A stretch of 64,000 nucleotides of DNA from Candidatus Saccharimonadales bacterium (GTDB taxonomy: Bacteria > Patescibacteriota > Saccharimonadia > Saccharimonadales > JANWIN01), in contig JBBRLY010000013.1 of the NCBI GenBank assembly GCA_038231155.1, positions 4,305 to 68,304 of the forward strand, read 5' to 3'. The notes beneath the pieces were generated by a model. That model did not search any database, was not told where the DNA came from, and saw only the letters and a program-made list of their open reading frames with translations. Below, in pieces: positions 1 through 21,404 of the stretch. Made by a program: the position numbers and the translations under genes. Within the stretch, counting starts at the first letter, position 1; every line of letters starts with the position of its first letter.

Positions 1-2193
1 TGACGGGGCAACTGTATCAGTTGTTGTTGACACTATATAGCTGACATTCGGCATATTTACCGGCGAGGTATTTAATGAATTTGTTACAACCTGGCTGGCG
101 GCGATAGAGTAAGCTCCGTCAGTCACTAAATTATCAGAAGTAAGTTTTAGATTTACCGTCGCACTAGCTCCAGGAGCTATGCTTACTAGGTCGGGACTAG
201 CGACATCGCTAAAACTGTCGGGTACGCCATTGTTATAGGCAAATAATGAGGCAGGTGGAAGGATTCGATAATTTGTGGCAGTGCAATTTGAGCTATCATT
301 ACTAGTGATCTTATAACTGTAAGTAGCCGTCTGTTTTGGTGCCACAGTTTGACTAAAAGGAGAAGTTAAGGCGATCGTTGGATTATTCCGAGTACAATTA
401 GCAGAAGTTGGGATAGTCACCGTGACGTTGGCTCCTGTACTATCGGCAGATTGAGTCGAAATTACGATGCCGGTCTCAGGATCAGTAAAGCTCTTACTAG
501 GCAGTAACATGCCGTCAACTTCATCGTCTATTACAGTTCCGGTTTGATTACTTAGTGGTGTGGTGTCTATTAATTGATTATCACCTGTGCCATCGTTGTA
601 CACAAAATTGAGCATTGGGCCTTTGGTGGCTTGACATTTCGATCCACAATTTGGGTTAGTAGATGTCATCCAAGAATCAAAGCCAATTGGTTGACGGTAC
701 TCTAAAGTAAAAGCCGTACCAGAGTTCCCGCGAGGTATGTAGAGCGTTAATACACCACTAGTGGGAGTTTCGTAGGGTAGGAGTTTAAAGTTATGGGTTC
801 CTGGGGTATTTACAGTTACATTACTGGTGGGGCCCAACCAGCCGGCATTTCGCTTATGTAAGGCATCTAGATGAGGTATTAGACTGCTACCTGATTCGCC
901 TAGTCCTCCACCTAATATGTCAAATTTATTACCATAGGCAATTGATTGACAATTAGGACCGGATCTAGTCGGTGGCACAAAAGCTTGGGGTTGGCAGTTA
1001 TAAAAGTTGGAGTGATAATTTCCGATACCTGCAACATGTGATAGCTCATGCACGATAGTGCTGGTATTAATCGGATCAGATGGTATCTGAGCGATTTGGC
1101 CACCGAAAATAAAACCGCTGGTGACGCTAGGTACTGGGAAGCTACCAGCAAGGCTTAAACCAAGGCAATTCTTAATCAAAACAATCCGGCTGTATTGACT
1201 AAAATCAATAGTTGAACCAAATTGATTGTAAAATTGCTGCCATTCAGTATTAGTGCAACTCAAGCCTGAACCAGTAGGAATAGATATCGTATAGGGTCCT
1301 AAAAACGTTGGGTTAAGATTTTCCTTATTGTATGAAGCTTCACTCCAGTAGCTATTAATATCATGACCTGGATTACCTTGGAATGCTGCTTTAATTGCAG
1401 TTAAACTTAGCGAACTAGGAGAATTAGAAAAATTAACTGGAATCACGACAACATTGGTTTGAGATGCTGCCAGAGTTGCGTTATTTATTATCTTAGAACT
1501 GTCAATATGACTTGAATTTTTTGGTGGTGGTGAGTTAATTTTGATACTCAATAAACTACCGCTCAAACCAGGAATATAGATAACATTTTTGATTTTGTAA
1601 CCACTGATGGATACATTAGATCCAAAGTCCACGGATGGGAATATTCCGTTGCTGTATAGTTGATATTCGCCCGATGATGTAATAAGTGAATTGACCTCAG
1701 AATCGACCCCTTTTAACGTTTGGCTCTTAACGTAGTAAGCTCCTGTTAAAGTGACTTTTTGCTCAAGTTGATTTTCAGGAACACTACTTAGATCAGTCAA
1801 TTCTTGGTCAGTTAGGATGAACTGATTAGCTTGGTTTGGCTTTGCTTCAACCAACTTGATAAGCGCGGATTGCCGTGCTTGGCTAATACTTTTTAAAAAT
1901 GGAGCAACTTGATTTTGACGGAGACGATCATCTCGGACTGCCGCCCCAATAGCTCTTATTTGATTAGTGGTTGTCTGAACAAGTACCAAATCACTGTTTA
2001 TTAATTTTTTTGAATTTATTTGAGGTGTTGCTGCTCTTGAACCTATTAGAAGCAATATCCCACCTGAAACTGCAAACAAAGCCACAAATGCTGTGATATA
2101 TAGTCTTGAGAAACTGTTTGGTTGGAATGGTTTAAAGTTCGATGACTTTAAGCCTTGTAGTTTCTCCACTGGCTCGTGCTCCCATTCTTGCAC
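1..2193 (-). CDS. membrane-anchored secreted zinc metalloprotease (HExxH, gametolysin/M11-like); C-terminus lies beyond the window
   Basis: Absent from the track because it leaves the window. My reverse-strand translation is open from about 2214 down to base 1. It shows an N-terminal TM helix (LYITAFVALFAVSGGILLLIG) and the motif TIVHELSHVAGIGNYH. There is no ATG near the 5' end. Candidate starts are GTG at 2193 (AAGG 7 nt upstream) or TTG at 2214. Confidence 0.6.
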   Translation of the reverse strand, partial: MQEWEHEPVEKLQGLKSSNFKPFQPNSFSRLYITAFVALFAVSGGILLLIGSRAATPQINSKKLINSDLVLVQTTTNQIRAIGAAVRDDRLRQNQVAPFLKSISQARQSALIKLVEAKPNQANQFILTDQELTDLSSVPENQLEQKVTLTGAYYVKSQTLKGVDSEVNSLITSSGEYQLYSNGIFPSVDFGSNVSISGYKIKNVIYIPGLSGSLLSIKINSPPPKNSSHIDSSKIINNATLAASQTNVVVIPVNFSNSPSSLSLTAIKAAFQGNPGHDINSYWSEASYNKENLNPTFLGPYTISIPTGSGLSCTNTEWQQFYNQFGSTIDFSQYSRIVLIKNCLGLSLAGSFPVPSVTSGFIFGGQIAQIPSDPINTSTIVHELSHVAGIGNYHSNFYNCQPQAFVPPTRSGPNCQSIAYGNKFDILGGGLGESGSSLIPHLDALHKRNAGWLGPTSNVTVNTPGTHNFKLLPYETPTSGVLTLYIPRGNSGTAFTLEYRQPIGFDSWMTSTNPNCGSKCQATKGPMLNFVYNDGTGDNQLIDTTPLSNQTGTVIDDEVDGMLLPSKSFTDPETGIVISTQSADSTGANVTVTIPTSANCTRNNPTIALTSPFSQTVAPKQTATYSYKITSNDSSNCTATNYRILPPASLFAYNNGVPDSFSDVASPDLVSIAPGASATVNLKLTSDNLVTDGAYSIAASQVVTNSLNTSPVNMPNVSYIVSTTTDTVAPS

Positions 2194-7023: not shown

Positions 7024-7344
7024 ATGGTTGAACAAACTTTATATTTAAATAACATCTTCGCCTCGTTGGCCGATCCAACACGAAGGGATATTTTGCGGCG
7101 AGTAATAGAAAAAGAATTTAATATATCTGAACTTTCTGAATTTTACGATATGAGCTTTGCTGCAGTTGCCAAGCACTTGAAGGTCCTCGAAAAAGCTAGG
7201 TTAATTATTAAAAAGCCTGTTGGTAAGAACCAGATGATCGAAGCCAGCCCAGTTGCTATCAAAGAAGCCACCATTTACTTAAAACAATATGAGAAGCTAT
7301 GGAACGAACGTTTTGATAAATTAGAGCAAATTTTAAAGGAGTAA
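7024..7344 (+). CDS. ArsR/SmtB-family HTH transcriptional regulator
   Basis: 106 aa. LADPTRRDILRRV and ISELSEFYDMSFAAVAKHLKVLEKARLI fit the family. Confidence 0.75.
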   Translation: MVEQTLYLNNIFASLADPTRRDILRRVIEKEFNISELSEFYDMSFAAVAKHLKVLEKARLIIKKPVGKNQMIEASPVAIKEATIYLKQYEKLWNERFDKLEQILKE

Positions 7345-10690: not shown

Positions 10691-10716
10691 ATTTGTCAAA
10701 GTGCTCTTTGACAAAT
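10691..10716. terminator. 11-bp perfect hairpin between convergent genes
   Basis: ATTTGTCAAAG-tgct-CTTTGACAAAT. There is no clear U-tract on either side. Confidence 0.35.
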
Positions 10717-10750
10717 CTGGTCGCTTTGATGCAGAGCTTAGCGTGTAAGG

Positions 10751-11134
10751 TTAGGAACTCTTTTCTACCCATTTTGAACGCCAAGCAGGTGCTTTAAAAG
10801 ACTCACTCCAATAAGCAGTTTCTTTAGCTATTTTCCCGGATTTAAATTCAAAAATGAATACCGTTTTATATGTCGGTCCGCCATAATTTAGATCGGCTTC
10901 GGCTATCACAAGCTGGCCATCACTTATCATTCTTCTTGGAGTTATCACTGGCAATTGTGGAAATAATTTATATATACCTCTGCGGTTATCGGCGCCAACA
11001 ACTTTTTCACCGGATTGGGGCCAGTCCATAATGGCGTCTTTTAAAAACAGATCATCCATTATTTCGATTTTGCGATCATTAATACATTTTATAAGTTGCG
11101 TTATGACTGCTTCATTTGCTGTATTCTGTGGCAT
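10751..11134 (-). CDS. SnoaL/NTF2-like domain protein
   Basis: 127 aa. The size and pattern (..FLKDAIMDWPQSGEKVVG.., FEFKSGKIAKETAYW) match the SnoaL-like polyketide cyclase fold. Confidence 0.5.
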   Translation of the reverse strand: MPQNTANEAVITQLIKCINDRKIEIMDDLFLKDAIMDWPQSGEKVVGADNRRGIYKLFPQLPVITPRRMISDGQLVIAEADLNYGGPTYKTVFIFEFKSGKIAKETAYWSESFKAPAWRSKWVEKSS

Positions 11135-11196
11135 GTTTGGACTCGGGTTAGCTAAATTAAGTATACTCTTTACACAATTAGACTTGAAAATTTAGG

Positions 11197-11221
11197 TGGT
11201 TGAGCGTGCCGATGTAGAAAC
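11197..11221 (+). repeat. 25-nt intergenic motif, copy 1
   Basis: TGGTTGAGCGTGCCGATGTAGAAAC. It lies 36 nt past the VOC gene stop and 62 nt upstream of the SnoaL-like start. Confidence 0.7.
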
Positions 11222-11256
11222 TTTTTTAAGAATCGTAAATAATGATTGTTTAAAAA

Positions 11257-11688
11257 CTAAGCGTTGCTAGCTTGTAAAATCGAGAAGCGGTTACCTTCTG
11301 TATCTTTTATAGAAATCCATAGACCGACACCGGGGATCATCTGCGGCTCCATGGTATGTTCACCTTTTTGGTTCATACCACCTAGTATTTTCCCGCCAGC
11401 ATCTTGGACGGCTTTCACGGCAACATTGATGTCATCGACAGAAACAACTACCGACGGGGCCTGGCTTAAAGGATTATCAGTTTTTTCGTAAAATCCACCA
11501 TTAATGGCGCCTTTTGTTTGAACCATACCGTTTTCATCAGTTTCAGTAGTGTGGGCGACCACATAATTGCCCATTTCCTCTCCCATATTTTCGGTTTTCC
11601 ACCCAAATACTTTTTGATAAAATTTGACCATTCGATCCTTGTCTTTGTAGCCCATCTCAAAATGCACAACTGGATTTGGCTTGTTCAT
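11257..11688 (-). CDS. VOC (glyoxalase/bleomycin-resistance) family protein
   Basis: 143 aa. VVHFEMGYKDKDRMVKFYQKVFGW is the typical VOC N-terminal beta-alpha-beta module. Confidence 0.65.
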   Translation of the reverse strand: MNKPNPVVHFEMGYKDKDRMVKFYQKVFGWKTENMGEEMGNYVVAHTTETDENGMVQTKGAINGGFYEKTDNPLSQAPSVVVSVDDINVAVKAVQDAGGKILGGMNQKGEHTMEPQMIPGVGLWISIKDTEGNRFSILQASNA

Positions 11689-11742
11689 AGATGATTCTCC
11701 TAATTACATCTTCAGCATAGCATTTTTGTGACGTTCCTAGAA

Positions 11743-11766
11743 TGTCTGAGCATGCCGGTCCAGAAC
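11743..11766 (+). repeat. 25-nt intergenic motif, copy 2
   Basis: TGTCTGAGCATGCCGGTCCAGAAC. A CTGAGCA...TGCTCAG inverted pair sits here (11746-11752 / 11776-11782). Confidence 0.75.
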
Positions 11767-11795
11767 ATGAAACACTGCTCAGCTGTCTCGTAAAG

Positions 11796-12074
11796 TTAGT
11801 ACTGCTTAGTTTCAACTATCTCGGCGGTACGAGCTTGTGGGTTTTTTATCACATCCACGTGACTCCATAGGTCAAGTAACGCGGTATGAGCCGCCTTTGC
11901 CTTGTCCAAGCTCTCAAACTCGAGATCGATCATGACGTAGTTAAGATTGTCGGTTGCGCGCAAGACGCGGTAGCTGCGAACGCCAGACTTTTCCCGGCCG
12001 ATTGGATCACTGTGGAATGCCTTATCCCAGGCATCGAAGTCGCCGACGGGGTGTTCGATTCGTAAAACGTACAT
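11796..12074 (-). CDS. small hypothetical protein (ABM/dimeric alpha-beta-barrel-like), G+C-rich
   Basis: I moved the start to the ATG at 12074, which has GGAG 6 nt upstream; the track start at 12110 has no SD. Sequence begins MYVLRIEHPVGDFDAWDKAF. Locally high G+C. Confidence 0.45.
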   Translation of the reverse strand: MYVLRIEHPVGDFDAWDKAFHSDPIGREKSGVRSYRVLRATDNLNYVMIDLEFESLDKAKAAHTALLDLWSHVDVIKNPQARTAEIVETKQY

Positions 12075-12245
12075 GTAAGCTCCTTCTTTGCGTGTTATTA
12101 ATGAATACATTATAACTCTTTAGCTGATACATGACAGTCAGTAATCTTGACGCAATACGGTTCTTTAATTATGAACGACCTCCCACGAGTATTAAACTAT
12201 GGAGTCAAACCTAGCCTTTCTGGACTTACATGCTGTAATAACTTT

Positions 12246-12270
12246 TGGTTGAGCATACCTGTCTAGACCC
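12246..12270 (+). repeat. 25-nt intergenic motif, copy 3
   Basis: TGGTTGAGCATACCTGTCTAGACCC. Confidence 0.7.
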
Positions 12271-12590
12271 CTGAATTTATCAAATAATTTCTGATTAGAA
12301 TTGTGGGGTTCTGGGACTAAGTTAAACGGATTGAATCCTGTTTCTCGTTTCACCAAGGTCTGCCGTATATGCTAATAGGATAGCCAGCTTTAAAAACTTC
12401 TTGTTTGGGCAAGAAAGGTATCTAAGAAAACCGGCATACCCCTAGAGAATCTTTAAATCATATTGCCTAAAAACCGTGACTGGCCACTATGTTCAGAGTT
12501 ATATTTTTGTTGATCGGCACACCCCAAGCGCTGAATTATGCCTCCTGGTACGCTGACCTATATAGTTATAATAGGTCTGTGTTTGAAAGG

Positions 12591-13088
12591 CTAGACAAGC
12601 AGACTTTTTTCTGTCCGCACATAGTGGCAAGTATAGCCGCCAGGATTATGTTGCAAGTAATCTTGGTGGTAAGCTTCGGCGGTATAAAAGGTCGTAAACT
12701 TTTCTAATGTTGTTACGACAGGATTTTTGTAAAGTCCCGAATGGTTTACCTTTTGAATAATATCTTGCGCAGTATGTAACTCCTTTTCATCCTGGTAGAA
12801 GATCGCAGAGCGATATGACGAACCGGTATCATTACCTTGTCTGTTGAGCGTCGTTGGATCGTGAATTCTGAAAAAGAAATCAAGTATAGTCATGTAGTTA
12901 GTTTTATTAGTGTCGTAGGTGATAGCTAGTGCTTCGGCATGTCCGGGGTGATTACTGTAGTCCGGGTTTTTGTTATCACCACCCGTATAACCAATTTCAG
13001 TGGCAATTATTCCAGGCTGCTCCCGAAATAGCTCCTCCAACCCCCAAAAACAACCACCTGCTAAATATATCGTTCTGTGCGTATTCAT
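12591..13088 (-). CDS. msrA: peptide-methionine (S)-S-oxide reductase
   Basis: 165 aa with the active-site GGCFWG motif near the N-terminus and no signal peptide. Confidence 0.9.
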   Translation of the reverse strand: MNTHRTIYLAGGCFWGLEELFREQPGIIATEIGYTGGDNKNPDYSNHPGHAEALAITYDTNKTNYMTILDFFFRIHDPTTLNRQGNDTGSSYRSAIFYQDEKELHTAQDIIQKVNHSGLYKNPVVTTLEKFTTFYTAEAYHQDYLQHNPGGYTCHYVRTEKSLLV

Positions 13089-13102
13089 AGTTTTATTCTC
13101 CT

Positions 13103-13351
13103 CTATATGTTTAGTGCTGACTTAAAGGCTCGCTGATTGTAGCCGCTAATTTTGATTTGCTTACCGGCATCGTTTGTTATGACAGTAAAAGGCACGCCAA
13201 TCATGCCATCATTTACAGACATGAACTCGGCCATAACTTCCTGGTCTGTATCAGTTATTTTCTTAGTATATTGGAAACCGTTTTTATGTAGCCAATCACC
13301 AAGGCTCTTGCAAGAAGCACAGATAGAGGTGGAATAGATGGTTATGATCAT
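13103..13351 (-). CDS. glutaredoxin/NrdH-like small redoxin
   Basis: 82 aa with a CASC (CxxC) motif after the first beta-strand and a GVPF cis-Pro region. Confidence 0.7.
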   Translation of the reverse strand: MIITIYSTSICASCKSLGDWLHKNGFQYTKKITDTDQEVMAEFMSVNDGMIGVPFTVITNDAGKQIKISGYNQRAFKSALNI

Positions 13352-13370
13352 GAGTTACTCCTTATCATAA

Positions 13371-15080
13371 TTAATTACCAAATGTAAAGGTATTCAGGAT
13401 GACGCCACCCGGCACCTTAAGCTCAATAATGCCACTACTAAAATCCTTAAAACTGGCAATGCGGTATAGATTAGATAGTTGTACGCTTACTTGACTGTTA
13501 GTGACATCAGTTCCAGCATCTCCAGACTGACTAACAGGCTGTCCATTAAAGCTAACTCCAACTGGAGTAGAGGTTGGTGCGCCTCCCACTAAATAGACAT
13601 TTTTGGCGGCAATGTTAATCCTAAGTTTTGCGTTCATGCCTGCCGTTATACTGCCTCCTGATACTTGCCACTCACCCGATAAGCTCCATTGTGAATTGGC
13701 TAGGTTAATTGCGTAGCTGTATGTTTGGTCTGGCTGTGACCCTAATGCTGGTGAACCGCTATAAGCCTGAGCACGATCAGTTCCCAAGTAGGTCTCGGGA
13801 GTTTGGTTTTGATTTATAGGTACGGGTGTATTGGATGGTGCGACGAGGTTTGATGACAATTTTGTTTTGCTTTTTTCACTCAACAACCCTCGAATAGCCT
13901 GTTCGGTCTGGTCGTATTCTCCCTCGCCGAAATGTTCTCGTCGTACGTTGCCATTTTGATCAATAAGGTACTCCGCTGGCCAGTATTGGTTTTGGTAGGC
14001 ATTCCAAGTGGCCAGATTGTCGTCTATGGCAATCGGATAGGTAAGGCCATCTTGCTTTACGGCTGCTGCAACATTAGACGGTATCTTTTCGTACGAGAAT
14101 TCAGGCGCTTCAACCCCCACTACTACTAGACCGTCTTTCTGGTAATGACTATACCATCCCTGTAAGTAGGGCAAGCTTCGGATGCAGTTGATACAAGTGT
14201 AAGTCCAGAAGTCGACCAAGACTACTTTGCCTTTAAGTTGCGCCAGGGTTTGAGGATTACTGTTAATCCAGCTTTGAATTCCAGTAAATTCAGGAGCTTT
14301 GAAAGCGGCTACATTGTAAAGTTTGGAGTTATCGATTGTTTTAGCATTAGACTGTTTTGGTATAAGTTTTGAGCTGAGATTATCAAACTTGAAGGGTGTA
14401 TGATCGGCTACTAGAACCTGCAGTTTTGTACCTGTACCGGTAATTATCATTATGCCGACCAAGATGAATAGTATTGCTAGAGTCCTCTGGAAGTAACCAT
14501 TAGGATTGCTGGCGAACTTTATGCGAGATGTAAGCCTCTGGCCGTAATAACCAACAGCCAGGAGTATCAAGGACAAACCAATGACATATGAAATAATGTA
14601 GGCCATTGCTGTCGCGAAGTGTGCTGGTAAGATAGTTGCTAAAATGTAGCCATATACTGGGCTACAACTCGAAAACACCGGTCCTAAGGCTGCTCCCGTA
14701 ATAATCGGTCCGATCATTTGGCTTCGATTACTGGTGCCCGTTCCAAGTAAACGCTGAGCTCGATGTTCAATACCTAGCTTAGCTATAATAGTAGCGTAGG
14801 TCTGCGGAAATAAGGTGGCTAAACCGAGGGCTACAATAATCCCTCCCGAGAAGTATGTAATAGTAGCTGGCGGGATGTTAATTAGTAAGGTTGTGGCCTT
14901 CAAAAGAACCGTAAAAACTATTAACGATATCGCCAATGACCCAGCTATTAAAAATGGTCGTCGCCGGTCTTTGCTTTCACCGGCTACTGAGCCACCGATA
15001 ATTACCGGTAGAAGTGGAAGCACGCAGGGTGCTAAGACAGTAAGTACTCCGGCAATGAATGCGCCTAACAGCAAAAACAT
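13371..15080 (-). CDS. CcdA/DsbD-type thiol-disulfide transporter fused to a TlpA/ResA-like thioredoxin domain plus a C-terminal beta-rich domain
   Basis: 569 aa. The N-terminal half has 6 TM segments with LAPCVLP and SSCSPVY Cys motifs. The middle has FWTYTCINC (CxxC). The last roughly 190 aa are of unknown function. Confidence 0.7.
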   Translation of the reverse strand: MFLLLGAFIAGVLTVLAPCVLPLLPVIIGGSVAGESKDRRRPFLIAGSLAISLIVFTVLLKATTLLINIPPATITYFSGGIIVALGLATLFPQTYATIIAKLGIEHRAQRLLGTGTSNRSQMIGPIITGAALGPVFSSCSPVYGYILATILPAHFATAMAYIISYVIGLSLILLAVGYYGQRLTSRIKFASNPNGYFQRTLAILFILVGIMIITGTGTKLQVLVADHTPFKFDNLSSKLIPKQSNAKTIDNSKLYNVAAFKAPEFTGIQSWINSNPQTLAQLKGKVVLVDFWTYTCINCIRSLPYLQGWYSHYQKDGLVVVGVEAPEFSYEKIPSNVAAAVKQDGLTYPIAIDDNLATWNAYQNQYWPAEYLIDQNGNVRREHFGEGEYDQTEQAIRGLLSEKSKTKLSSNLVAPSNTPVPINQNQTPETYLGTDRAQAYSGSPALGSQPDQTYSYAINLANSQWSLSGEWQVSGGSITAGMNAKLRINIAAKNVYLVGGAPTSTPVGVSFNGQPVSQSGDAGTDVTNSQVSVQLSNLYRIASFKDFSSGIIELKVPGGVILNTFTFGN

Positions 15081-15343
15081 TATTGACCTGTAGGTGTGCT
15101 ACCGGTTGAGCTTGTAGTAGCGTGCATCATCGCGTCGTGAGCTGCCATCTTGTCAGTTTCTGCTTGTTTCATCGCTGCGTCAGCCGCTGCTTTTTTAACG
15201 GCCTTTGCTTGCATTGTCTGGGAGGTCATCAGGGCATGGTCATTTGAAACCTTATCATTGTGGTGTACGACTAGCGCAGTAGCAGCTGAAAAGCCGATTA
15301 CCGCTATTAAGGCTATAATAATTTGAATATTCTTAGTATTCAT
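15080..15343 (-). CDS. membrane-anchored Met/His/Ala-rich small protein
   Basis: 87 aa with an AGGAGGG SD and one TM helix. Then VVHHND, MTSQTMQ and MAAHDAMMH. It overlaps the downstream gene by 1 nt. Confidence 0.5.
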   Translation of the reverse strand: MNTKNIQIIIALIAVIGFSAATALVVHHNDKVSNDHALMTSQTMQAKAVKKAAADAAMKQAETDKMAAHDAMMHATTSSTGSTPTGQ

Positions 15344-15378
15344 TAGGCTACCCTCCTGAAGTTTTTATGATATTGTTT

Positions 15379-15407
15379 AGTGTAGGATAAGAAATATGTA
15401 AAGTCAA
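15379..15407 (-). promoter_or_regulatory. promoter TTGACT-N17-TACACT for the Met-rich/ccdA/grx/msrA unit
   Basis: Read on the minus strand. The palindrome GTCAA-C-TTGAC (15403-15413) overlaps the -35. Confidence 0.4.
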
Positions 15408-15426
15408 CTTGACATATTAATAAAGC

Positions 15427-15795
15427 TCATTTGCGACTTATCCAGGTACTCACAATCAGTTTCGTAATAACCATTGCACCTAGTGTAATTGCTAACCAAA
15501 GATCGAGATGATGCTGAATAGATTGAATAATGATTGCCACCACTAGTACGCCACCGCCAATAAAATATGAAATGCGACCAGCCATGAGACCATAGAGGGC
15601 TTCGCGTTCGTCATGAGGTTTCTCGCGCCAGATGAACACGGCGAAGGCAATTACCGCAACGGCAAGTATCATTATTAAAGAAAGCGTGACCGCAGAAGTC
15701 ATTAGTATACTGAGTGGATTTATAAGAAGCACCAAAGCAATAACTATGGCTAAGCCTATCAGTCCTTCTGAAGCCTGGGGTAGCCTAAGTTTCAT
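15427..15795 (-). CDS. integral membrane protein (3-4 TM), partner of the XRE regulator
   Basis: 122 aa, strongly hydrophobic. It overlaps the upstream regulator gene by 11 nt. Confidence 0.5.
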   Translation of the reverse strand: MKLRLPQASEGLIGLAIVIALVLLINPLSILMTSAVTLSLIMILAVAVIAFAVFIWREKPHDEREALYGLMAGRISYFIGGGVLVVAIIIQSIQHHLDLWLAITLGAMVITKLIVSTWISRK

Positions 15796-16054
15796 ATTGG
15801 AATACCATTTCTAGGGAGGTGTTAAATTGTCTACTTATTTTAAGCGCTAATAGTACCGAAGGCACATAATTGCCTTTTTCGATTGAGATAATCGTCTGTC
15901 TGGTTACGTTCACCATTTTGCCTAATTCCTCTTGCGTCATTCCAGCTTTTTTACGATATTTCTCAACGCTATTTATAACTTTCTCTCGCGTTGCCATGCA
16001 GACTACTATAGCATCACTTTGTAAAGTTAGTTTAACATTTTCTTTATATATCAT
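15785..16054 (-). CDS. XRE-family HTH transcriptional regulator
   Basis: MTQEELGKMVNVTRQTIISIEKGNYVPSVLLALKISRQF is the Cro/C1-type HTH. The true start may be the ATG at 15997. Confidence 0.75.
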   Translation of the reverse strand: MIYKENVKLTLQSDAIVVCMATREKVINSVEKYRKKAGMTQEELGKMVNVTRQTIISIEKGNYVPSVLLALKISRQFNTSLEMVFQYET

Positions 16055-16148
16055 CAGTCGTTCTTCGAATAAGTATAAGATAAGCTAATCGTTACATCGG
16101 TTCTAACATACTCAATGGCCGACTAAAATTAACAGATACAAAATGAGG

Positions 16149-16173
16149 TGGCTGAGCACCCCGGTCTAGAACC
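16149..16173 (+). repeat. 25-nt intergenic motif, copy 4
   Basis: TGGCTGAGCACCCCGGTCTAGAACC. A partial inverted copy, GGTTCTAAC, lies about 60 nt to its left. Confidence 0.8.
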
Positions 16174-16226
16174 GTTAACCAATAAAGATAGGTTTTACTC
16201 AAGCTATTGTCTGGCAGAGCTTTAAA

Positions 16227-17552
16227 TTACTTTGTAAGTTGATAATTAGTAAAGCCAACATGAGAATCCTCGTTATAAAAGCCTGGTCGGCCAGAAGTAT
16301 ACGGAGTCTGGGTGTCGGTAAATGTAGTAATCAGTTGGTCATTTACGTAGGCGCTAATTTTATTATTACTGTCTTGGAATATTGAGATCTTATACCAGGG
16401 GCCGATAGGATAGCTTGGCGAAGAGCTGTCCGCCAGGAAGCGCTGCGATCCGGGGTAGGCGGGGTCTTCTTTCCCCAGCTCCCAGCCGTTTGTTTTTGGG
16501 GTAAAGTAGTAAAAATGATTGTCGTCGGTGTAATTCCAAACGACCCAAGCAACCTCCCACGGATTTGGAGCTGAACCGGTTCTGAGCTGTTTAAACGTAG
16601 TGAGTAGTGTATTAAACGCTATCGGACCTGAGTGTGACTGACCTAGTACCAATGAGGCATGCGTTTCGGATGCTGAAGTGCTAGCCTTAGGAGATTCGTC
16701 TAAGTAGGTTTGACTTGACGCTGTTTTAATTTGCGTACAGCCGTAACCGTTATAGGTTGATGTCCATTGTCCAAAAGTAGTCCCATCAGGGAAACATAAG
16801 TTTTGGGTGTAGCTAGAAAAATTCTCAACTGTTGCACCGGGTGTTATAACAAGATTGGAAATATCAAGTTTAGTATTACTAGCAGTATCACTAATAAAAA
16901 ATTCTACTCCTTGGTAGGTATTCGGGTTATGAATTATGCTAAGGCAAGCTATTTGTTGGTAACTGGTTGAGCTTTCAGTGTAAGCTACACTTGCGAGAGT
17001 GCTACCTATAGGTGAGCTACCAAACTCTTTGGCTGATAGACTCCCAGTGCTCGTGCCACTTGCAGCCCTAGCCGTTAGACATACGCTGTAACCAGTACCG
17101 GTAAGTCCATTTGCTGTAATAGCTGCCACACCGTTCGATTGATTGGTTGAGTTAGCTATTTGAATAGCATTTGGAGATTTAGAGTTATCACCTATAACTG
17201 AGGCATTTATAGAATTAGCAGGATCAAAATTATGATAGTTTAAAGTTATCTGTGTACCAGTTGATGTCTGTGTCGTAGCTGCATGACTAAACTTAAGACC
17301 TATTACACCAAGTACTCCAAAAAGTATGGCAAAGGCAGCAACCCGACTATAAGTAAATGCACTGGGCTTTTTAGGCAGAGGTTTATACTTTACTTTATTC
17401 GATATTCTTGTGTCTGTTTCTTTTTTATCTAGATTCGCTTGAGTGTTATTAGAGGCGGTTGTGTCATTATCTGATGCAGCGGTTTCATTCTGTTCTTGCG
17501 GGTGATTTTCCATCAACTTTTTTAGATGTCCTTGAGATTTACGATGTTTCAT
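16227..17552 (-). CDS. membrane-anchored secreted protein with C-terminal LamG/DUF1080-like jelly-roll domain
   Basis: 441 aa with a TM helix at about residues 70-90. The C-terminus (WVVWNYTDDNHFYYF...ISAYVNDQLI...GRPGFY) fits the concanavalin-like pattern. Confidence 0.45.
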   Translation of the reverse strand: MKHRKSQGHLKKLMENHPQEQNETAASDNDTTASNNTQANLDKKETDTRISNKVKYKPLPKKPSAFTYSRVAAFAILFGVLGVIGLKFSHAATTQTSTGTQITLNYHNFDPANSINASVIGDNSKSPNAIQIANSTNQSNGVAAITANGLTGTGYSVCLTARAASGTSTGSLSAKEFGSSPIGSTLASVAYTESSTSYQQIACLSIIHNPNTYQGVEFFISDTASNTKLDISNLVITPGATVENFSSYTQNLCFPDGTTFGQWTSTYNGYGCTQIKTASSQTYLDESPKASTSASETHASLVLGQSHSGPIAFNTLLTTFKQLRTGSAPNPWEVAWVVWNYTDDNHFYYFTPKTNGWELGKEDPAYPGSQRFLADSSSPSYPIGPWYKISIFQDSNNKISAYVNDQLITTFTDTQTPYTSGRPGFYNEDSHVGFTNYQLTK

Positions 17553-17611
17553 AACAGCTATTCATAAGTATACCCTCTATTTATGCTAAATATACAAGAG
17601 ACATCTTTAAT

Positions 17612-19015
17612 ATGATAAAAGGTAATATCAATGTGGCTGGGCATTGCGGTCTATTACCAGACAGTACTAAAATTGCTTATGCTATAGTTAAGACATTAGT
17701 GCAAGATACCCCTAACCCCCATCAAATAGCCAAAGAAACCGCGTCCCCACCCAGGCTTAAAAGTAGGCGCGTTACTATCATAGTTGGAGTGGCCGTGCTG
17801 GGACTATTACTTATAGCGCTCGGCACCTTCTTTGCGTTCAAGAATTACAGTATTGTCCATAAATCTACAAACAAATCTGCTCAGCCCAGTAATAAGCAGG
17901 TTACCGCTATCGATCCAGCCCTACAGGCTGGCCAGGAGCTGTCAAGTGGCAAGTGCAACGGCAGTGGCGCTGGTAAATTGACCGTCCCGGCCATGAATCC
18001 CGCCGACTTCTCAATTCTCATTCCGTATGGACTAGTGGTGGGCGGCCACGTTACCCCCATTGATCACCAATACTGGGCTCCAGCCAATTACAACTCCCCG
18101 CTTAATGCCTATCCAGTATTTGCCATGGGCGACGCCCACATTACCGACATTGAACCTCGCACTCATGCAGACCCAACAAACCCAACCAAATCCTACACCG
18201 AATACCGTCTAGTCTTTACTCATAGCTGTACATGGTTATACTACTACGACCTAGTAACTAGTCTTTCGCCTGACATCAAAGCCATTTACGACAAACACGG
18301 TGGTTTTGATATTCCAGTTAAAGCTGGCCAGATGATTGGACGGATTGGTCATCAGACGCTCGACTTCGCCGTCTGGGATACCACTAAGCCTCTGAAGGGC
18401 TTCATTAACCCCACTAGCTACAAAAGCGAGGCTTGGAAAATCTACACCGCTAACCCTCTAAATTATATGTCGGCCAGCCTCAAAGCCTTAGTCATCGCTC
18501 GTGACCCTAGAACGGCTGAACCGATTGAAGGCAAGATAGATTACGACCTTGACGGCAAGCTAATTGGTAACTGGTTTGTTAAGGGCACAGGTGGTTACAG
18601 TGGCGGCGTTAGTAGCGGCCAACCCAATTATTGGAAGACCCATCTATCTATTGTTCCCAATCTGTACGATCCTAGTGCTTTCATATTGTCTATTGGCAGC
18701 TGGCAGACCTCCAATGGACAATTAGCAGATCAGTTTGCAGCTAAGGGCAATGCCCCCGACCCTTCTACTGTCAGTGTCGCAACCGGGTTAGTTAGGTATA
18801 ACTTAGTCAAGTTTAACTATACGGCACAAGATGGCACTCCTTGGACGCAAATGAACGTGATTAAGAACCCAAAACTTCAGCTGCAAGTGCAGATAGAGGG
18901 CTGTGCATTAGTGCAGCTAACAGGTGATCGGGCATTAAAGTTTGAAGCCATCCAAGGCAAAAGTTGTGCCAGCATTAATGGCTTTAGTGCCAACGCCAAA
19001 GCTTACGAACGTTAA
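17612..19015 (+). CDS. membrane-anchored secreted protein, possibly a degenerate LytM/M23-like domain; G+C-rich
   Basis: 467 aa with a TM helix (VTIIVGVAVLGLLLIALGTFFAF). VKAGQMIGRIGHQTLDF resembles an M23 strand but lacks HxH. The first 16 codons overlap motif copy 5, so the in-frame GTG at 17699 is an alternative start. Confidence 0.4.
   Translation: MIKGNINVAGHCGLLPDSTKIAYAIVKTLVQDTPNPHQIAKETASPPRLKSRRVTIIVGVAVLGLLLIALGTFFAFKNYSIVHKSTNKSAQPSNKQVTAIDPALQAGQELSSGKCNGSGAGKLTVPAMNPADFSILIPYGLVVGGHVTPIDHQYWAPANYNSPLNAYPVFAMGDAHITDIEPRTHADPTNPTKSYTEYRLVFTHSCTWLYYYDLVTSLSPDIKAIYDKHGGFDIPVKAGQMIGRIGHQTLDFAVWDTTKPLKGFINPTSYKSEAWKIYTANPLNYMSASLKALVIARDPRTAEPIEGKIDYDLDGKLIGNWFVKGTGGYSGGVSSGQPNYWKTHLSIVPNLYDPSAFILSIGSWQTSNGQLADQFAAKGNAPDPSTVSVATGLVRYNLVKFNYTAQDGTPWTQMNVIKNPKLQLQVQIEGCALVQLTGDRALKFEAIQGKSCASINGFSANAKAYER
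17634..17658 (+). repeat. 25-nt intergenic motif, copy 5 (most divergent)
   Basis: TGGCTGGGCATTGCGGTCTATTACC, 19/25 to copy 4. It lies 81 nt upstream of the LamG-like gene start. Confidence 0.55.
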
Positions 19016-19052
19016 ATAACCGTATTTATCTTTTAATTTTTCTTAGACAGAT

Positions 19053-19078
19053 TGGCTGGGGAAAAGGGATGCGAACTC
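19053..19078 (-). repeat. duplicate of the 3' end of tRNA-Gln (CCA, acceptor 3' strand, T-arm)
   Basis: TGGCTGGGGAAAAGGGATGCGAACTC versus 21331-21356 TGGCTGGGGAAGAGGGATTTGAACCC: 22/26, with the first 11 identical. No rest of a tRNA is adjacent. Confidence 0.7.
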
Positions 19079-19081
19079 TAT

Positions 19082-19330
19082 TTAACGAGGCAAAGTTATT
19101 CCAGCTTGTTTAGCCGCGCTAACTAGTTTAGAATTTAATGTTAAAATCTTCTTTTCAATTGATAGTTTATCAAATTCTTTTGTGATAATTGGTTCGCTTT
19201 GAATTTGTGCAATCATGTCGTAGATTTCTTTTATGTCATTCCTTAATGCGTGTAACTCGCCCTGAACAGGCTGAATTTCCTCCTTGATTATATTCCGTAT
19301 TTCTTGCAGATCTGACGATGTTAGACTCAT
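19082..19330 (-). CDS. small coiled-coil hypothetical protein
   Basis: 82 aa with a heptad-like pattern (LQEIRNIIKEEIQPVQGELHALRNDIKEIYDMI). Confidence 0.4.
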   Translation of the reverse strand: MSLTSSDLQEIRNIIKEEIQPVQGELHALRNDIKEIYDMIAQIQSEPIITKEFDKLSIEKKILTLNSKLVSAAKQAGITLPR

Positions 19331-19376
19331 ACAGTTATTTTAGCATGCGTTAACTGCGGCTTAATACTTATTATAT

Positions 19377-19401
19377 TGGCTGAGCATGCCTGGTGTTGAA
19401 C
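19377..19401 (+). repeat. 25-nt intergenic motif, copy 6
   Basis: TGGCTGAGCATGCCTGGTGTTGAAC. In gene sense it is followed directly by TATAAT. Confidence 0.65.
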
Positions 19402-19543
19402 TCATTCAATAAAGTGATGAGACTTGTACCAAAGATTCGTATTAGCAAGCCGAAGTTGGATATACAACAGCTTAGAACAACTCCCCCTTGTTCAGGATCA
19501 GAAATAATTAGGGCATGAGAAGATTCTATACAACGACTAACGT

Positions 19544-20134
19544 TTATTGTAGGAGATCTTCGTTGGCGGCCTCAAAGACTGTAGATATTTTGCCTTCGCA
19601 ATCAAACGAAAACGAAATGACTTTTTTAGTACTGGATTTGCCAACCACGGCATTACTCGGGAAATATGTTTTATAGAAACTCTTGGCGTAGCCGCTTGTG
19701 ACAGAAGACGCTAGAGCAAAATCCCAAGTTGTAGTTGTGGGGTCACCGATAAAACTGGTGATATCGGTTACGGCTTGAGTTGGTGTTTGCACACCAATGC
19801 TCTCGCTGGCCGCTACTATTACAGTCACCTTGATCGCCATGTAGCCTTCCAGCGCGGCAGTGTTGCCGGAAGTAATGCTGGCTTTGATATTGTCTAAATT
19901 GCTAGCGCTAGGGTCTTTGCATACAGTTTTAGGTGGTGTAACCTCAGTTGAAGTAGTCGTCTTTGGCGTTGCTGCTGGTGCGGGTTTTGAGTTAGAACTA
20001 GGTGTGGTTTTTTTGCTGTCGTTATTTTGTTTCCAAATGTACCAGCCCAATGCACCTAAAATGATTAGTATTAACAATATCAGCAATAGCTCCACCATGC
20101 CCATACCATGTTGATTAGATCTTAGTTTTCGCAT
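19544..20134 (-). CDS. type IV pilin-like protein (non-canonical prepilin leader)
   Basis: 196 aa. The sequence MRKLRSNQHG/MGMVELLLILLILII has a basic leader ending in Gly, Glu at +5 and a hydrophobic helix. Confidence 0.5.
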   Translation of the reverse strand: MRKLRSNQHGMGMVELLLILLILIILGALGWYIWKQNNDSKKTTPSSNSKPAPAATPKTTTSTEVTPPKTVCKDPSASNLDNIKASITSGNTAALEGYMAIKVTVIVAASESIGVQTPTQAVTDITSFIGDPTTTTWDFALASSVTSGYAKSFYKTYFPSNAVVGKSSTKKVISFSFDCEGKISTVFEAANEDLLQ

Positions 20135-20222
20135 TAACCACCCCGCTATTTATTAGCTTAAGCATATATCTAAATCTATAAGCAATCAAATCAAGGTTTA
20201 AGAAATTCGTATATTATTATTT

Positions 20223-20247
20223 GAGCTGAGCACCTCGGTCTAGAACC
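20223..20247 (+). repeat. 25-nt intergenic motif, copy 7
   Basis: GAGCTGAGCACCTCGGTCTAGAACC, 22/25 to copy 4. It lies 10 nt past the purC stop. Confidence 0.8.
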
Positions 20248-20256
20248 TATAATGAT

Positions 20257-21168
20257 TCATACCGTATAATCCAAAAGATTATTCATAATTCGTTCTCTTA
20301 CTGGTGTAATTAAGTCTGGCCGGAAAGGCTGACCGGTTAATTGTTGATACACCTGAATGTATCGCCTAGTCATTTCCATAACTTTACCTTTTGGTGCATC
20401 TGGCATAAATTCATCATCATACGGTCTGCTATTAGTCTGAAACCATAAGCGAAGAAACTCTTTGTCATAATTCTCAGGCTCTTGTCTTTGCTCAAATTTT
20501 TCTGAGTAATCAGCCATTTGCCAATATCTTGATGAGTCTGGTGTATGTAACTCATCGATTAGGATAATTTCACCAGTGTCGTTTATACCAAACTCATACT
20601 TAGTGTCCACTAGTACCAGGCTGTGTTCTCGAGCAACATGTTGACCAAAGCCAAATAGCTCTAGCGCTACTGAAACTAGTCTGTCTCTAGTTTCAGTGTC
20701 AACTAGGCCTTCTTTTACAATGCTATCGAGCGTAAGATTACGGTCATGAGTTTCTAATTTTGTAGATGGTGTAATAACCGGATGATTAAGTCGTTGGTTT
20801 TTATGTAAGTTATCGGGAAGTATAAAATCCCCGAAATCGCGCTGCCCTTTATCATACGTTTTCCATAAAGACGTATTGGTTACACTAGTAACGAATCCTC
20901 TCACGATCATCTCTACTGGTAATACATCACATCTTTGAGCAACAGTAACGTTGGGATCAGGATACCCTATAGCATGGTTATCAATGATATGTCTAGTTCT
21001 ATCGAACCACCAACGACTTATTTGCGTAACTGTCTCTCCTTTATATGGCACAAGTGCTAAATTACGATCAAAAGCAGAATAACGATCAGTCGCTACCAAC
21101 AATACTCTTCCTGGCTGCTCATATATGTCTCTAACCTTACCAACTCTTTTCTCCTCAATTTCAGGCAT
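20257..21168 (-). CDS. purC: phosphoribosylaminoimidazole-succinocarboxamide (SAICAR) synthase, long form
   Basis: GKVRDIYE and LLVATDRYSAFD motifs. I moved the start to the ATG at 21168, which has GAGGAA 6 nt upstream. The track's 5' extension to 21405 runs through the tRNA gene. Confidence 0.8.
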   Translation of the reverse strand: MPEIEEKRVGKVRDIYEQPGRVLLVATDRYSAFDRNLALVPYKGETVTQISRWWFDRTRHIIDNHAIGYPDPNVTVAQRCDVLPVEMIVRGFVTSVTNTSLWKTYDKGQRDFGDFILPDNLHKNQRLNHPVITPSTKLETHDRNLTLDSIVKEGLVDTETRDRLVSVALELFGFGQHVAREHSLVLVDTKYEFGINDTGEIILIDELHTPDSSRYWQMADYSEKFEQRQEPENYDKEFLRLWFQTNSRPYDDEFMPDAPKGKVMEMTRRYIQVYQQLTGQPFRPDLITPVRERIMNNLLDYTV

Positions 21169-21330
21169 ATATGTTTCCTCAAGAATAAATCTTTGAGGAG
21201 GGTCTAATAATCCGAGATCTATATCAGTAAAATCTAACGCCTCATGACCAAGTTGTTCGCCTCTGTCTGGCATAGATATATTTAAACATACAAGTCTCGG
21301 AACACGGTCACAACCCCTGTTGCTAATGCT

Positions 21331-21404
21331 TGGCTGGGGAAGAGGGATTTGAACCCCCGATCCTGGGACCAGAACCCAGTGCCTTACCGCTTGGCCATTC
21401 CCCA
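21331..21404 (-). tRNA. tRNA-Gln (anticodon CUG), CCA encoded
   Basis: Hand-folded cloverleaf. Acceptor TGGGGAA/TTCCCCA with U1-A72 as in bacterial tRNA-Gln. Anticodon stem CTGGG/CCCAG with loop TTCTGGT. T-arm GGGGG-TTCAAAT-CCCTC. Confidence 0.85.

Follow-up and report, generated by a model that had tools for sequence, protein, structure and literature searches.

A 25-nucleotide motif tied to tRNA-Gln marks an insertion boundary for accessory genes across Patescibacteria

A 25-nucleotide (nt) motif that recurs between accessory genes and is tied to the gene for tRNA-Gln is an insertion boundary across the phylum Patescibacteria. We describe it starting from 64,000 nt of a Candidatus Saccharimonadales bacterium (GenBank assembly GCA_038231155.1, contig JBBRLY010000013.1, positions 4,305 to 68,304 of the forward strand), a stretch called the window in the following. 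It holds seven copies of the motif, one fragment of tRNA-Gln and the tRNA gene itself, all in one orientation. Sequence comparisons make it probable that the motif is one half of an integration site mimicking the last 25 nt of tRNA-Gln, and that the array is a composite island of recombinase-less remnants or satellites. Loci in other genomes are referred to by L numbers.

Direct reading places the seven copies, all on the minus strand, at the positions listed by an initial annotation of the window, and gives the gene-sense consensus GGTTCTAGACCGnnnTGCTCAGCCA. Allowing up to three mismatches, this pattern matched four copies against 0.00 expected from 100 shuffles, a control which that annotation had itself proposed. 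A profile of the seven copies, run against the 64 kb, recovered its own seven at E ≤ 3e-4 and a next match at E = 0.58. The same sites are the top seven matches, again all on the minus strand, for an external profile built from 163 motif copies of other genomes and zero window sequence; its next match has E = 2.3. According to both profiles all seven copies fall within 9 kb and the remaining 55 kb are free of them, as the annotation had noticed for the core half of the window.

The E values of the external profile grade the copies. Copy 4 (16149..16173, minus strand, GGTTCTAGACCGGGGTGCTCAGCCA, E = 3e-7), a consensus copy, and copy 1 (20223..20247, minus strand, GGTTCTAGACCGAGGTGCTCAGCTC, E = 1.4e-6), which begins 9 nt past the purC stop codon, are near-consensus and agree with each other at 22/25 positions, the value found earlier by hand. 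They are followed by copy 6 (11743..11767, minus strand, TGTTCTGGACCGGCATGCTCAGACA, E = 7.6e-4) and copy 5 (12246..12270, minus strand, GGGTCTAGACAGGTATGCTCAACCA, E = 0.026), the latter together with 40 nt downstream being 81.5% identical to L056. Degenerate or eroded, yet real, are copy 2 (19377..19401, minus strand, GTTCAACACCAGGCATGCTCAGCCA, E = 0.048), which carries one indel, copy 3 (17634..17658, minus strand, GGTAATAGACCGCAATGCCCAGCCA, E = 0.048) and copy 7 (11197..11221, minus strand, GTTTCTACATCGGCACGCTCAACCA, E = 0.099, and 1.4e-4 with the seven-copy profile). Directly preceding copy 3, alignment of an upstream element described below revealed the remnant TTTTAGTACTGTCT (17659-17672) of the conserved TTTTATACTGTCTCA. 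The ending TGCTCA-R-CCA, previously counted in four copies, is strictly present in three of the seven.

One further site had been missed. At 19053-19077 on the minus strand, in motif orientation and starting 4 nt past the stop of an 82-amino-acid (aa) gene, lies the tRNA-Gln 3' fragment AGTTCGCATCCCTTTTCCCCAGCCA, which matches the last 25 nt of tRNA-Gln at 21/25 positions on direct reading. It is also hit in tblastn searches by the tails of recombinase open reading frames (ORFs) that run antisense to tRNA. The fragment is a genuine displaced tRNA-Gln 3' end and forms an eighth copy of the integration site. A single array can thus contain copies of the true tRNA end side by side with mimics, and the unit formerly given as '467-aa + 82-aa' splits in two.

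How far does the motif reach beyond this genome? An exact-pattern scan of species-representative genomes returned 30 matches of the GGTTCTAGACCGnnnTGCTCAGCCA form in non-coding DNA at 29 loci, one to a genome and with unrelated flanks. The 29 genomes are labeled Saccharibacteria, WWE3, Woesebacteria, Amesbacteria and other Patescibacteria. A stricter pattern added at least 120 further loci in metagenomes, and no exact match to the motif pattern was found in viral contigs. Two or more copies occur in 33 of the 120 metagenome loci listed, with a median spacing of about 1.3 kb and a single orientation in 33/33, the uniform orientation reported for the window being seen in these loci as well; arrays are found in L092, L109, L078, L218 and others. 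About 89 of the 119 matches to a first pattern (GTTCTRGACCG...) were coding coincidences in Proteobacteria and Streptomyces, with GTTCTGGACCG... in a membrane-protein gene, and were discarded. In many Proteobacteria the pattern GTTCTGGACCGnnGTGCTCAGC falls within a conserved gene for a membrane protein (..LFWTGVLS..), and it also occurs in a Streptomyces gene (among L003-L121); these occurrences are unrelated to the motif.

The tie to tRNA-Gln is seen in both position and sequence. This species accounts for 30 of the 39 tRNA genes in motif loci, and in all 31 loci that hold tRNA-Gln, the window included, it lies upstream of the motif in the same orientation. The orientation of the motif thus tracks the tRNA gene and not the flanking genes. 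In addition, motif and tRNA-Gln align collinearly from T-loop to CCA, over the last 25 nt of the tRNA (GGTTCGAATCCnnnnnnnCCCAGCCA versus GGTTCTAGACCGnnnTGCTCAGCCA). In the window, the motif and the adjacent tRNA-Gln end agree in register at 16/25 positions; the alignment proposed earlier stands, its count of 16/26 being replaced by the measured one. CCA-encoding tRNA-Gln ends match the motif at 15-16 of 22 specified positions, other tRNAs at 10-14. Judged by these matches, the motif resembles tRNAs in general; tRNA-Gln comes closest, with a modest lead that is due mainly to ...CAGCCA. Of the explanations offered by the initial annotation, the tRNA 3'-end mimic has therefore been borne out and narrowed to one tRNA.

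Does this resemblance act at the level of RNA? A tRNA-like 3' end might be a substrate for RNase P, RNase Z or the CCA-adding enzyme and so punctuate a polycistronic transcript, and the match from T-loop to CCA as well as the position of all window copies between genes on the transcribed strand would suit such a role. We nevertheless find it hardly credible. No copy matches a tRNA in ARAGORN or any Rfam family even at E ≤ 10, and the tRNA at 21331-21404 is the only one detected. The copies have neither a 5' acceptor strand nor a T-stem partner, they fold no better than shuffled sequence, and many units elsewhere have their ORFs on the other strand.

The arrangement of the genes around the motif is telling in another respect. 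In the window, six copies follow the stop codon of the gene on their right, as described before, at gaps of 9, 142, 53, 320, 28 and 35 nt, and the start codon of the downstream gene comes 46-171 nt after the motif. In other genomes the distance from a same-strand stop codon to the motif has a median of 36 nt, and of 129 next ORFs 49 are encoded on the opposite strand. A motif just past same-strand stops, with next ORFs that may point the other way, defines a unit as cargo followed by a terminal motif. A compact case is L092 (WWE3), where six copies delimit units of one ORF each on either strand, the motif follows the stop codon by 0-10 nt and the next ORF starts in places 5-8 nt after CCA.

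The same data bear on the idea, also raised by the initial annotation, that the copies jointly serve a local regulon as promoter or operator, controlled for instance by the XRE protein of the array. All window copies do lie 46-171 nt upstream of a minus-strand gene, and sigma-70-like sequences overlap two of them (TCAACA-18-TATAAT at 19377 and TAGACC-18-AATAAT at 20223). The annotation's distance of about 50-175 nt is accordingly right for this array, but it fails as a rule and reflects the gene orientation here: elsewhere the next ORF is often reversed or starts as little as 5-8 nt past the motif. Promoter-like matches in the region show no excess over shuffles (29 versus 24.7 expected), the orientation equals that of tRNA-Gln in 31/31 loci, the motif is conserved across classes next to unrelated genes, and most arrays lack the XRE gene. 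A regulatory origin of the motif is thus very improbable. A terminator scan of the region likewise gave counts no higher than in shuffled sequence.

Direct evidence for a boundary comes from pairs of related loci. Between L017 and L066, an identity of 89% extends over 3.5 kb as far as the final motif base, beyond which the sequences are unrelated, and the similarity of L091 and L114 also breaks at the CCA end of the motif. Between L078 and L109 a segment of 1.9 kb is swapped for one of 2.9 kb; both breakpoints fall at motif 3' ends, and the right-hand motif is part of the variable segment. Synteny that breaks exactly at the CCA end means that the motif acts as a boundary of recombination or insertion, and the cassette-like division of the region into accessory units, proposed from the window alone, is in this way supported by block-wise variation in related genomes. 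These comparisons were made on pairs other than the window locus itself, because the source contig and its duplicates have identical gene neighbors at the locus and purC lacks a close relative. With L184 the window shares an upstream gene of 213 aa and a tRNA-Gln of 95% identity, and homology ends 2 nt past the tRNA 3' end. L184 also has a second tRNA-Gln-like copy (about 150-330, minus strand) 2.2 kb downstream of the intact gene, with an insertion of about 85 nt in its T arm.

Which enzyme could be responsible? All recombinases seen in the neighborhood of the motif belong to the large serine recombinases (LSRs), which have Resolvase and Recombinase domains. Elements with an LSR next to their end are found in L017, L018, L209, L151 and L242-L250. 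In L017, which represents a first clade, the element begins right after the motif with the LSR gene, followed by a Toprim/AAA_25 primase. The LSRs of L242-L245 are 68-70% identical to that of L017 and sit right after the CCA of an authentic tRNA-Gln(TTG), in elements that have the same primase/DUF5659 module together with restriction-modification cargo. LSR junctions directly after ..CAGCCA are therefore found at both kinds of site, namely at tRNA-Gln in L242-L245 and at the motif in L017 and L151. On the element side the junctions are homologous, ..CAGCCA|AGAGGTACG..CAAAACCCTTAATATTTGC versus ..CAGCCA|AGCGGAACG..CAAAACCCTTTATATTTGC, which indicates that either the motif or the true tRNA-Gln end can serve as the target's left half. 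The recombinase ORFs themselves cross the attachment junction (L017 3733-3753; L242 11609-11728; also L243-L245), their last 6 to about 40 codons running antisense to the motif or tRNA-Gln, and integration would consequently alter the C-terminus of the recombinase.

Motif copies accompany further LSRs. The element of L209, grouped with the first clade and carrying an LSR, a rolling-circle Rep (Phage_CRI Rep) and an ATPase, ends in the motif. A second LSR clade, the L018 type, is 26-29% identical to the first; in L018 and L249/L250 the LSR start codon comes 165-190 nt after the motif, which is itself preceded by a conserved block with TGAGACA/TGTCTCA repeats that also precedes about a quarter of the external motif copies. 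This upstream block, 20-70 nt before the motif, consists of inverted TGAGACA, then TTTTATAC and then TGTCTCATTTGTCTCATTT, and continues as ACATCCTGGAGAATAAAA or in a longer form ..GTGATACA..GGTTATGGGATCGAAA, whose GGATCG resembles the variable region of tRNA-Gln; examples are L017 3660-3729, L018 5270-5358 and L249 5810-5990. A regulator or directionality factor encoded by the element may bind there.

On the other side of the site, a flank class GATTGGGCACCCCAGTGACC..TCTAGAAAAGCCC occurs 3' of CCA after both tRNA-Gln and the motif, at 24 of 202 ends compared to 1.4% in controls. A flank of about 40 nt, GATTGGGCACCCCAGTGACCnnnnnTCTAGAAAAGCCC or variants of it, follows the tRNA-Gln CCA in L032, L120, L179 and L184 and the motif in L062, L152, L155, L156, L208, L210 and L212; it may represent the second half of the attachment site. 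A scan of the window found neither the recurrent 3' flank class nor the upstream TGTCTCA element; a weak version of the flank, ..GTTGTGACCGTGTTCC.., follows the window tRNA-Gln.

No tyrosine recombinase, the IntI type included, was among the best 25 families listed per batch for 286 neighboring ORFs, where a family with at least three members (GTDB batch) or at least two (metagenome batch) would show. Nor was a recurrent gene found upstream of or beside tRNA-Gln in motif loci that could be the analogue of intI. The copies do not behave as attC sites either: 80-nt DNA folds around the seven have z values of -1.16 to +0.49, the 25-nt block lacks an inverted partner, there is no R''/R' core pair and GTTCTAG does not fit GTTRRRY. 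Membership among integrons or clusters of attC sites lacking integron integrases (CALINs), whose likeness the initial annotation had noted, is hence not supported, in line with its own remark that the motif is no canonical attC.

Two cases show how elements with a recombinase can turn into units without one. L018 and L067 have common flanks, with a 1.38-kb LSR gene in L018 alone, and L120 reads tRNA-Gln, a C-terminal LSR fragment and, farther on, the motif. A recombinase-less derivative thus exists, and both cases show a route of decay from LSR-bearing elements to motif-ended units. In the window, tblastn detected no LSR or remnant, the matches being antisense-tRNA tails of recombinase ORFs alone, and no integrase was among the best 25 of 55 Pfam families listed for the other large ORFs, in agreement with the annotation. 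As neither a recombinase nor a remnant was seen, the window array is likely to be a recombinase-less composite island, in which tRNA-Gln is followed by seven or eight accessory units.

From these pieces a scenario can be put together. Integrative elements of Patescibacteria that encode LSRs would insert immediately 3' of ...CAGCCA, either at the tRNA-Gln gene or at an earlier motif copy. Each element would carry one motif at its far end, oriented like the tRNA, such that every insertion adds one motif-ended unit. Loss of the recombinase and replication genes would then leave small units of cargo plus motif; alternatively, the capture of satellite units without a recombinase would have the same outcome. 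Repeated rounds would produce a same-orientation array downstream of tRNA-Gln. We consider it likely that LSRs catalyze these insertions and that tandem accretion took this route, and the crossover itself quite probably falls at CCA or within a few nt 3' of it.

Several observations weigh against this scenario. Recombinases were found near only about 8 of some 150 motif loci and none in the window. In L242-L247, no motif and no far end of the element was detected within 10 kb of the recombinase, and the sequence 3' of CCA contains no clear inverted motif copy and no consistent inverted-repeat architecture. The quality of the motif does not fall off along the window array with distance from the tRNA. 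The apparent conservation of the motif is moreover inflated, because the external loci were chosen by exact pattern. Many units are single genes of 0.4-1.5 kb and closer to dedicated cassettes than to decayed elements of 7-15 kb. Finally, canonical LSRs recombine attP with attB only, and long direct repeats do not result; for elements to accrete in tandem, there must be either a relaxed choice of sites, as is known for the Ccr recombinases of the staphylococcal cassette chromosome (SCC), or a junction of motif plus flank that serves as a new target.

Are the units then dedicated cassettes? In an integron-like platform, single-gene cassettes with a 25-nt site at their 3' end would be captured and moved one by one at the end of tRNA-Gln by a trans-acting recombinase, be it an LSR encoded elsewhere or some other enzyme, and would not be decay products of larger elements. 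The small size of many units, the tight packing in L092 and the short same-strand distance from stop codon to motif in other genomes are what such a platform would lead one to expect, as are the very diverse cargo (154 families in 150 ORFs of the metagenome batch) and the lack of a recombinase in most arrays, the window's included. We still think it unlikely: besides the missing recurrent gene beside tRNA-Gln, no identical cassette was seen at two array positions, units with reversed ORFs or several genes are common, and L018/L067 as well as L120 point to decay from LSR elements. A more far-reaching version, to which we would give some chance while doubting it, is a phylum-wide platform for gene capture by serine recombinases, with the tRNA-Gln 3' end as landing pad and the 25-nt site, at times with TGTCTCA repeats, as the tag of trans-mobilized cassettes exchanged between classes. 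If true, cassettes would supply accessory functions to the ultra-reduced genomes of Patescibacteria.

The most recurrent neighbors are small GIY-YIG genes (YhbQ-like, about 90 aa), found in 14 loci directly 3' of the motif or tRNA-Gln, among them L141, L148, L169, L179, L201, L205, L227, L239, L119 and L126. They could be selfish nuclease cassettes or have a part in mobility. One might go further and assume that the motif persists because homologous repair, once DNA has been taken up, uses it as target or anchor of homology for exchange, perhaps in a homing-like manner through these nucleases, the more so as crossovers inside a shared 25-mer would give the same breakpoints. Homing, however, does not duplicate its target and leaves the same-orientation arrays unexplained, 25 nt are short for RecA-dependent exchange, and these proteins of about 90 aa, like others of the YhbQ type, are not known to have a DNA-binding domain. 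A sufficient enzyme is, besides, already available in the LSR elements, whose junctions are homologous at the motif and at tRNA-Gln. This explanation seems improbable to us.

Returning to the island that LSR elements have probably left in the window, its anchor is tRNA-Gln(CTG) at 21331..21404 on the minus strand (ARAGORN; Rfam tRNA, 61.7 bits), whose last 25 nt, GGTTCAAATCCCTCTTCCCCAGCCA, we read as the primary half of the integration site. In gene sense, the order from tRNA-Gln (21404 to 21331) is purC with copy 1, a pilin-like gene with copy 2, the 82-aa gene with the tRNA-Gln 3' fragment, a reversed 467-aa gene with copy 3, a LamG-like gene with copy 4, a block from XRE to MsrA with copy 5, a 92-aa gene with copy 6, VOC with copy 7 and a SnoaL-like gene. 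The genes beyond 10.7-21.4 kb have core functions (GatA/GatB, DnaE, PheRS, glycolytic enzymes). Among the loci of other genomes, those closest to the window are labeled Saccharibacteria.

Unit 1 (20248..21330, minus strand), between tRNA-Gln and copy 1, is a lone purC for SAICAR synthase (gene 20257-21273; PF01259). Its best matches come from Patescibacteria, with the nearest homologue just 58% identical, and at its position beside tRNA-Gln the relative L184 has different DNA and no purC. This purC has the look of acquired cargo and not of a core gene. The cargo of other motif loci includes a purA-like adenylosuccinate synthetase. Unit 2 (19402..20222, minus strand), between copies 1 and 2, encodes a pilin-like protein of 196 aa (ORF 19544-20134). 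The 82-aa gene (19082-19330) belongs to a unit ending in the tRNA-Gln fragment 19053-19077, and is followed by unit 3b (17659..19052), in which the 467-aa gene (ORF 17612-19015, plus strand) is reversed within its cassette; reversed ORFs inside units are also seen in L092. Unit 4 (16174..17633, minus strand) encodes a LamG-like secreted protein of 441 aa (ORF 16227-17552).

The largest block, unit 5 (12271..16148, minus strand), comprises according to Pfam an XRE regulator, membrane proteins of 122 and 87 aa, a CcdA-thioredoxin fusion (569 aa), a glutaredoxin-like protein (82 aa) and MsrA. It is a thiol and oxidative-stress module, possibly of two fused units; in L040 and L190, too, a motif copy is followed by the pair of XRE and the 122-aa protein. 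Between msrA and copy 5, 320 nt (12271-12590) are without an ORF, and the lone Rfam match at E ≤ 10 for this stretch is a chance-level small RNA just above it. Unit 6 (11768..12245, minus strand) encodes a protein of 92-104 aa (ORF 11796-12110) and unit 7 (11222..11742, minus strand) a VOC/glyoxalase protein (PF00903). A VOC homologue with 77% nucleotide identity occurs in L009, 5 kb downstream of the tRNA-Gln of that genome, where it directly follows a near-perfect copy of the tRNA-Gln 3' end (near position 7313). Past the last motif copy comes a SnoaL-like gene (10700..11196, minus strand; PF12680), and beyond it profile and flank scans detected no motif and no flank-type element. Either this gene is a last unit that has lost its terminal site, or it belongs to the original chromosomal flank.

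Little is understood of how Patescibacteria, with their tiny genomes, acquire genes. From the loci compared here, one 25-nt site and one tRNA gene appear to mark the accumulation of accessory genes across several classes, that is, a phylum-wide hotspot of acquisition. The genes gathered there include redox defense, pili, restriction-modification, methyltransferases and lone enzymes of the purine pathway. The motif offers a simple sequence handle to find and delimit this variable gene pool in metagenome-assembled genomes, and the candidate pairs of recombinase and site could become tools for integration in organisms whose genetic manipulation is very difficult. We found no paper in the searchable literature that contains the motif string or deals with tRNA-Gln islands in Patescibacteria.

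How does this compare to known systems? In SCC, several elements, some of them without a recombinase, are stacked in tandem and in one orientation, with copies of the site between them. Serine recombinases integrate SCC elements at a site that is part of a conserved gene's 3' end and recurs in the direct repeats flanking the elements (PMC8772726); composite SCC islands have been mentioned as well (PMC7029136). By analogy, the behavior of the islands described here is closest to that of composite SCC islands and tycheposon islands. As with SCCmec, pseudo-SCC and ACME at rlmH/orfX, LSRs would insert at a short site in the 3' end of a conserved gene, and tandem units are delimited by direct repeats of the integration site. 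A recombinase lies by the element end in related loci, the window being, on our reading, a remnant array without one. Unlike in SCC, the target is a tRNA-Gln gene and does not code for a protein, what is repeated is a 25-nt mimic of a tRNA end that is conserved between classes of the phylum, a unit often consists of just one gene, and single LSR genes of two distant clades, known here from their sequences, take the place of ccrAB or ccrC.

In the tycheposon islands of Prochlorococcus, successive integrations at tRNA genes leave partial tRNA repeats and degraded elements; the elements combine an integrase with replication modules (primase or helicase) and cargo, older ones are pushed inward, and most carry tyrosine recombinases, with large serine recombinases in 27 of 937 (bioRxiv 10.1101/2020.12.28.424599). 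The related loci likewise have a tRNA target and a replication module (Toprim/AAA_25 primase, Phage_CRI Rep). In contrast to tycheposons, only serine recombinases were seen, a single tRNA species is involved across the phylum, and the dominant repeat is a distinct mimic rather than a true partial copy of the host tRNA; with TGCTCA and not CCCCCA as its acceptor strand, it cannot restore tRNA-Gln. Classical tRNA islands of the Islander type (PMC4383910) also integrate at the 3' part of a tRNA and have a displaced tRNA 3' fragment at the far end, as in the window at 19053-19077 and in L009 near 7313. They differ in that tyrosine integrases act and an identical block restores the tRNA, whereas the block repeated here is mostly a non-identical mimic and insertion at or after CCA would leave the tRNA untouched.

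With integrons and CALINs the arrays share their single orientation, small and mostly single-gene units ending in a conserved site, the frequent lack of a recombinase, and cargo types such as VOC/glyoxalase, SnoaL, acetyltransferases and methyltransferases. Unlike in integrons, no IntI tyrosine recombinase was among the families listed, there is no attI or Pc promoter, and a tRNA gene is the anchor. Their site is a conserved sequence of 25 nt without a single-strand hairpin, as opposed to attC, an imperfect palindrome of 60-140 nt conserved in structure. Integron cassettes are promoterless, with ORFs co-oriented with the sites. Here the orientation of the sites is uniform (33/33), 27-38% of the ORFs are on the opposite strand, and the window units have leaders of 46-171 nt. 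An integron-like outcome may thus be reached through a different class of recombinase and a site that mimics a tRNA. From composite SCC islands and tycheposon islands, the system described here is set apart by the use of a single tRNA species throughout a phylum, the conserved mimic site, insertion after CCA and the many units made of a single gene.

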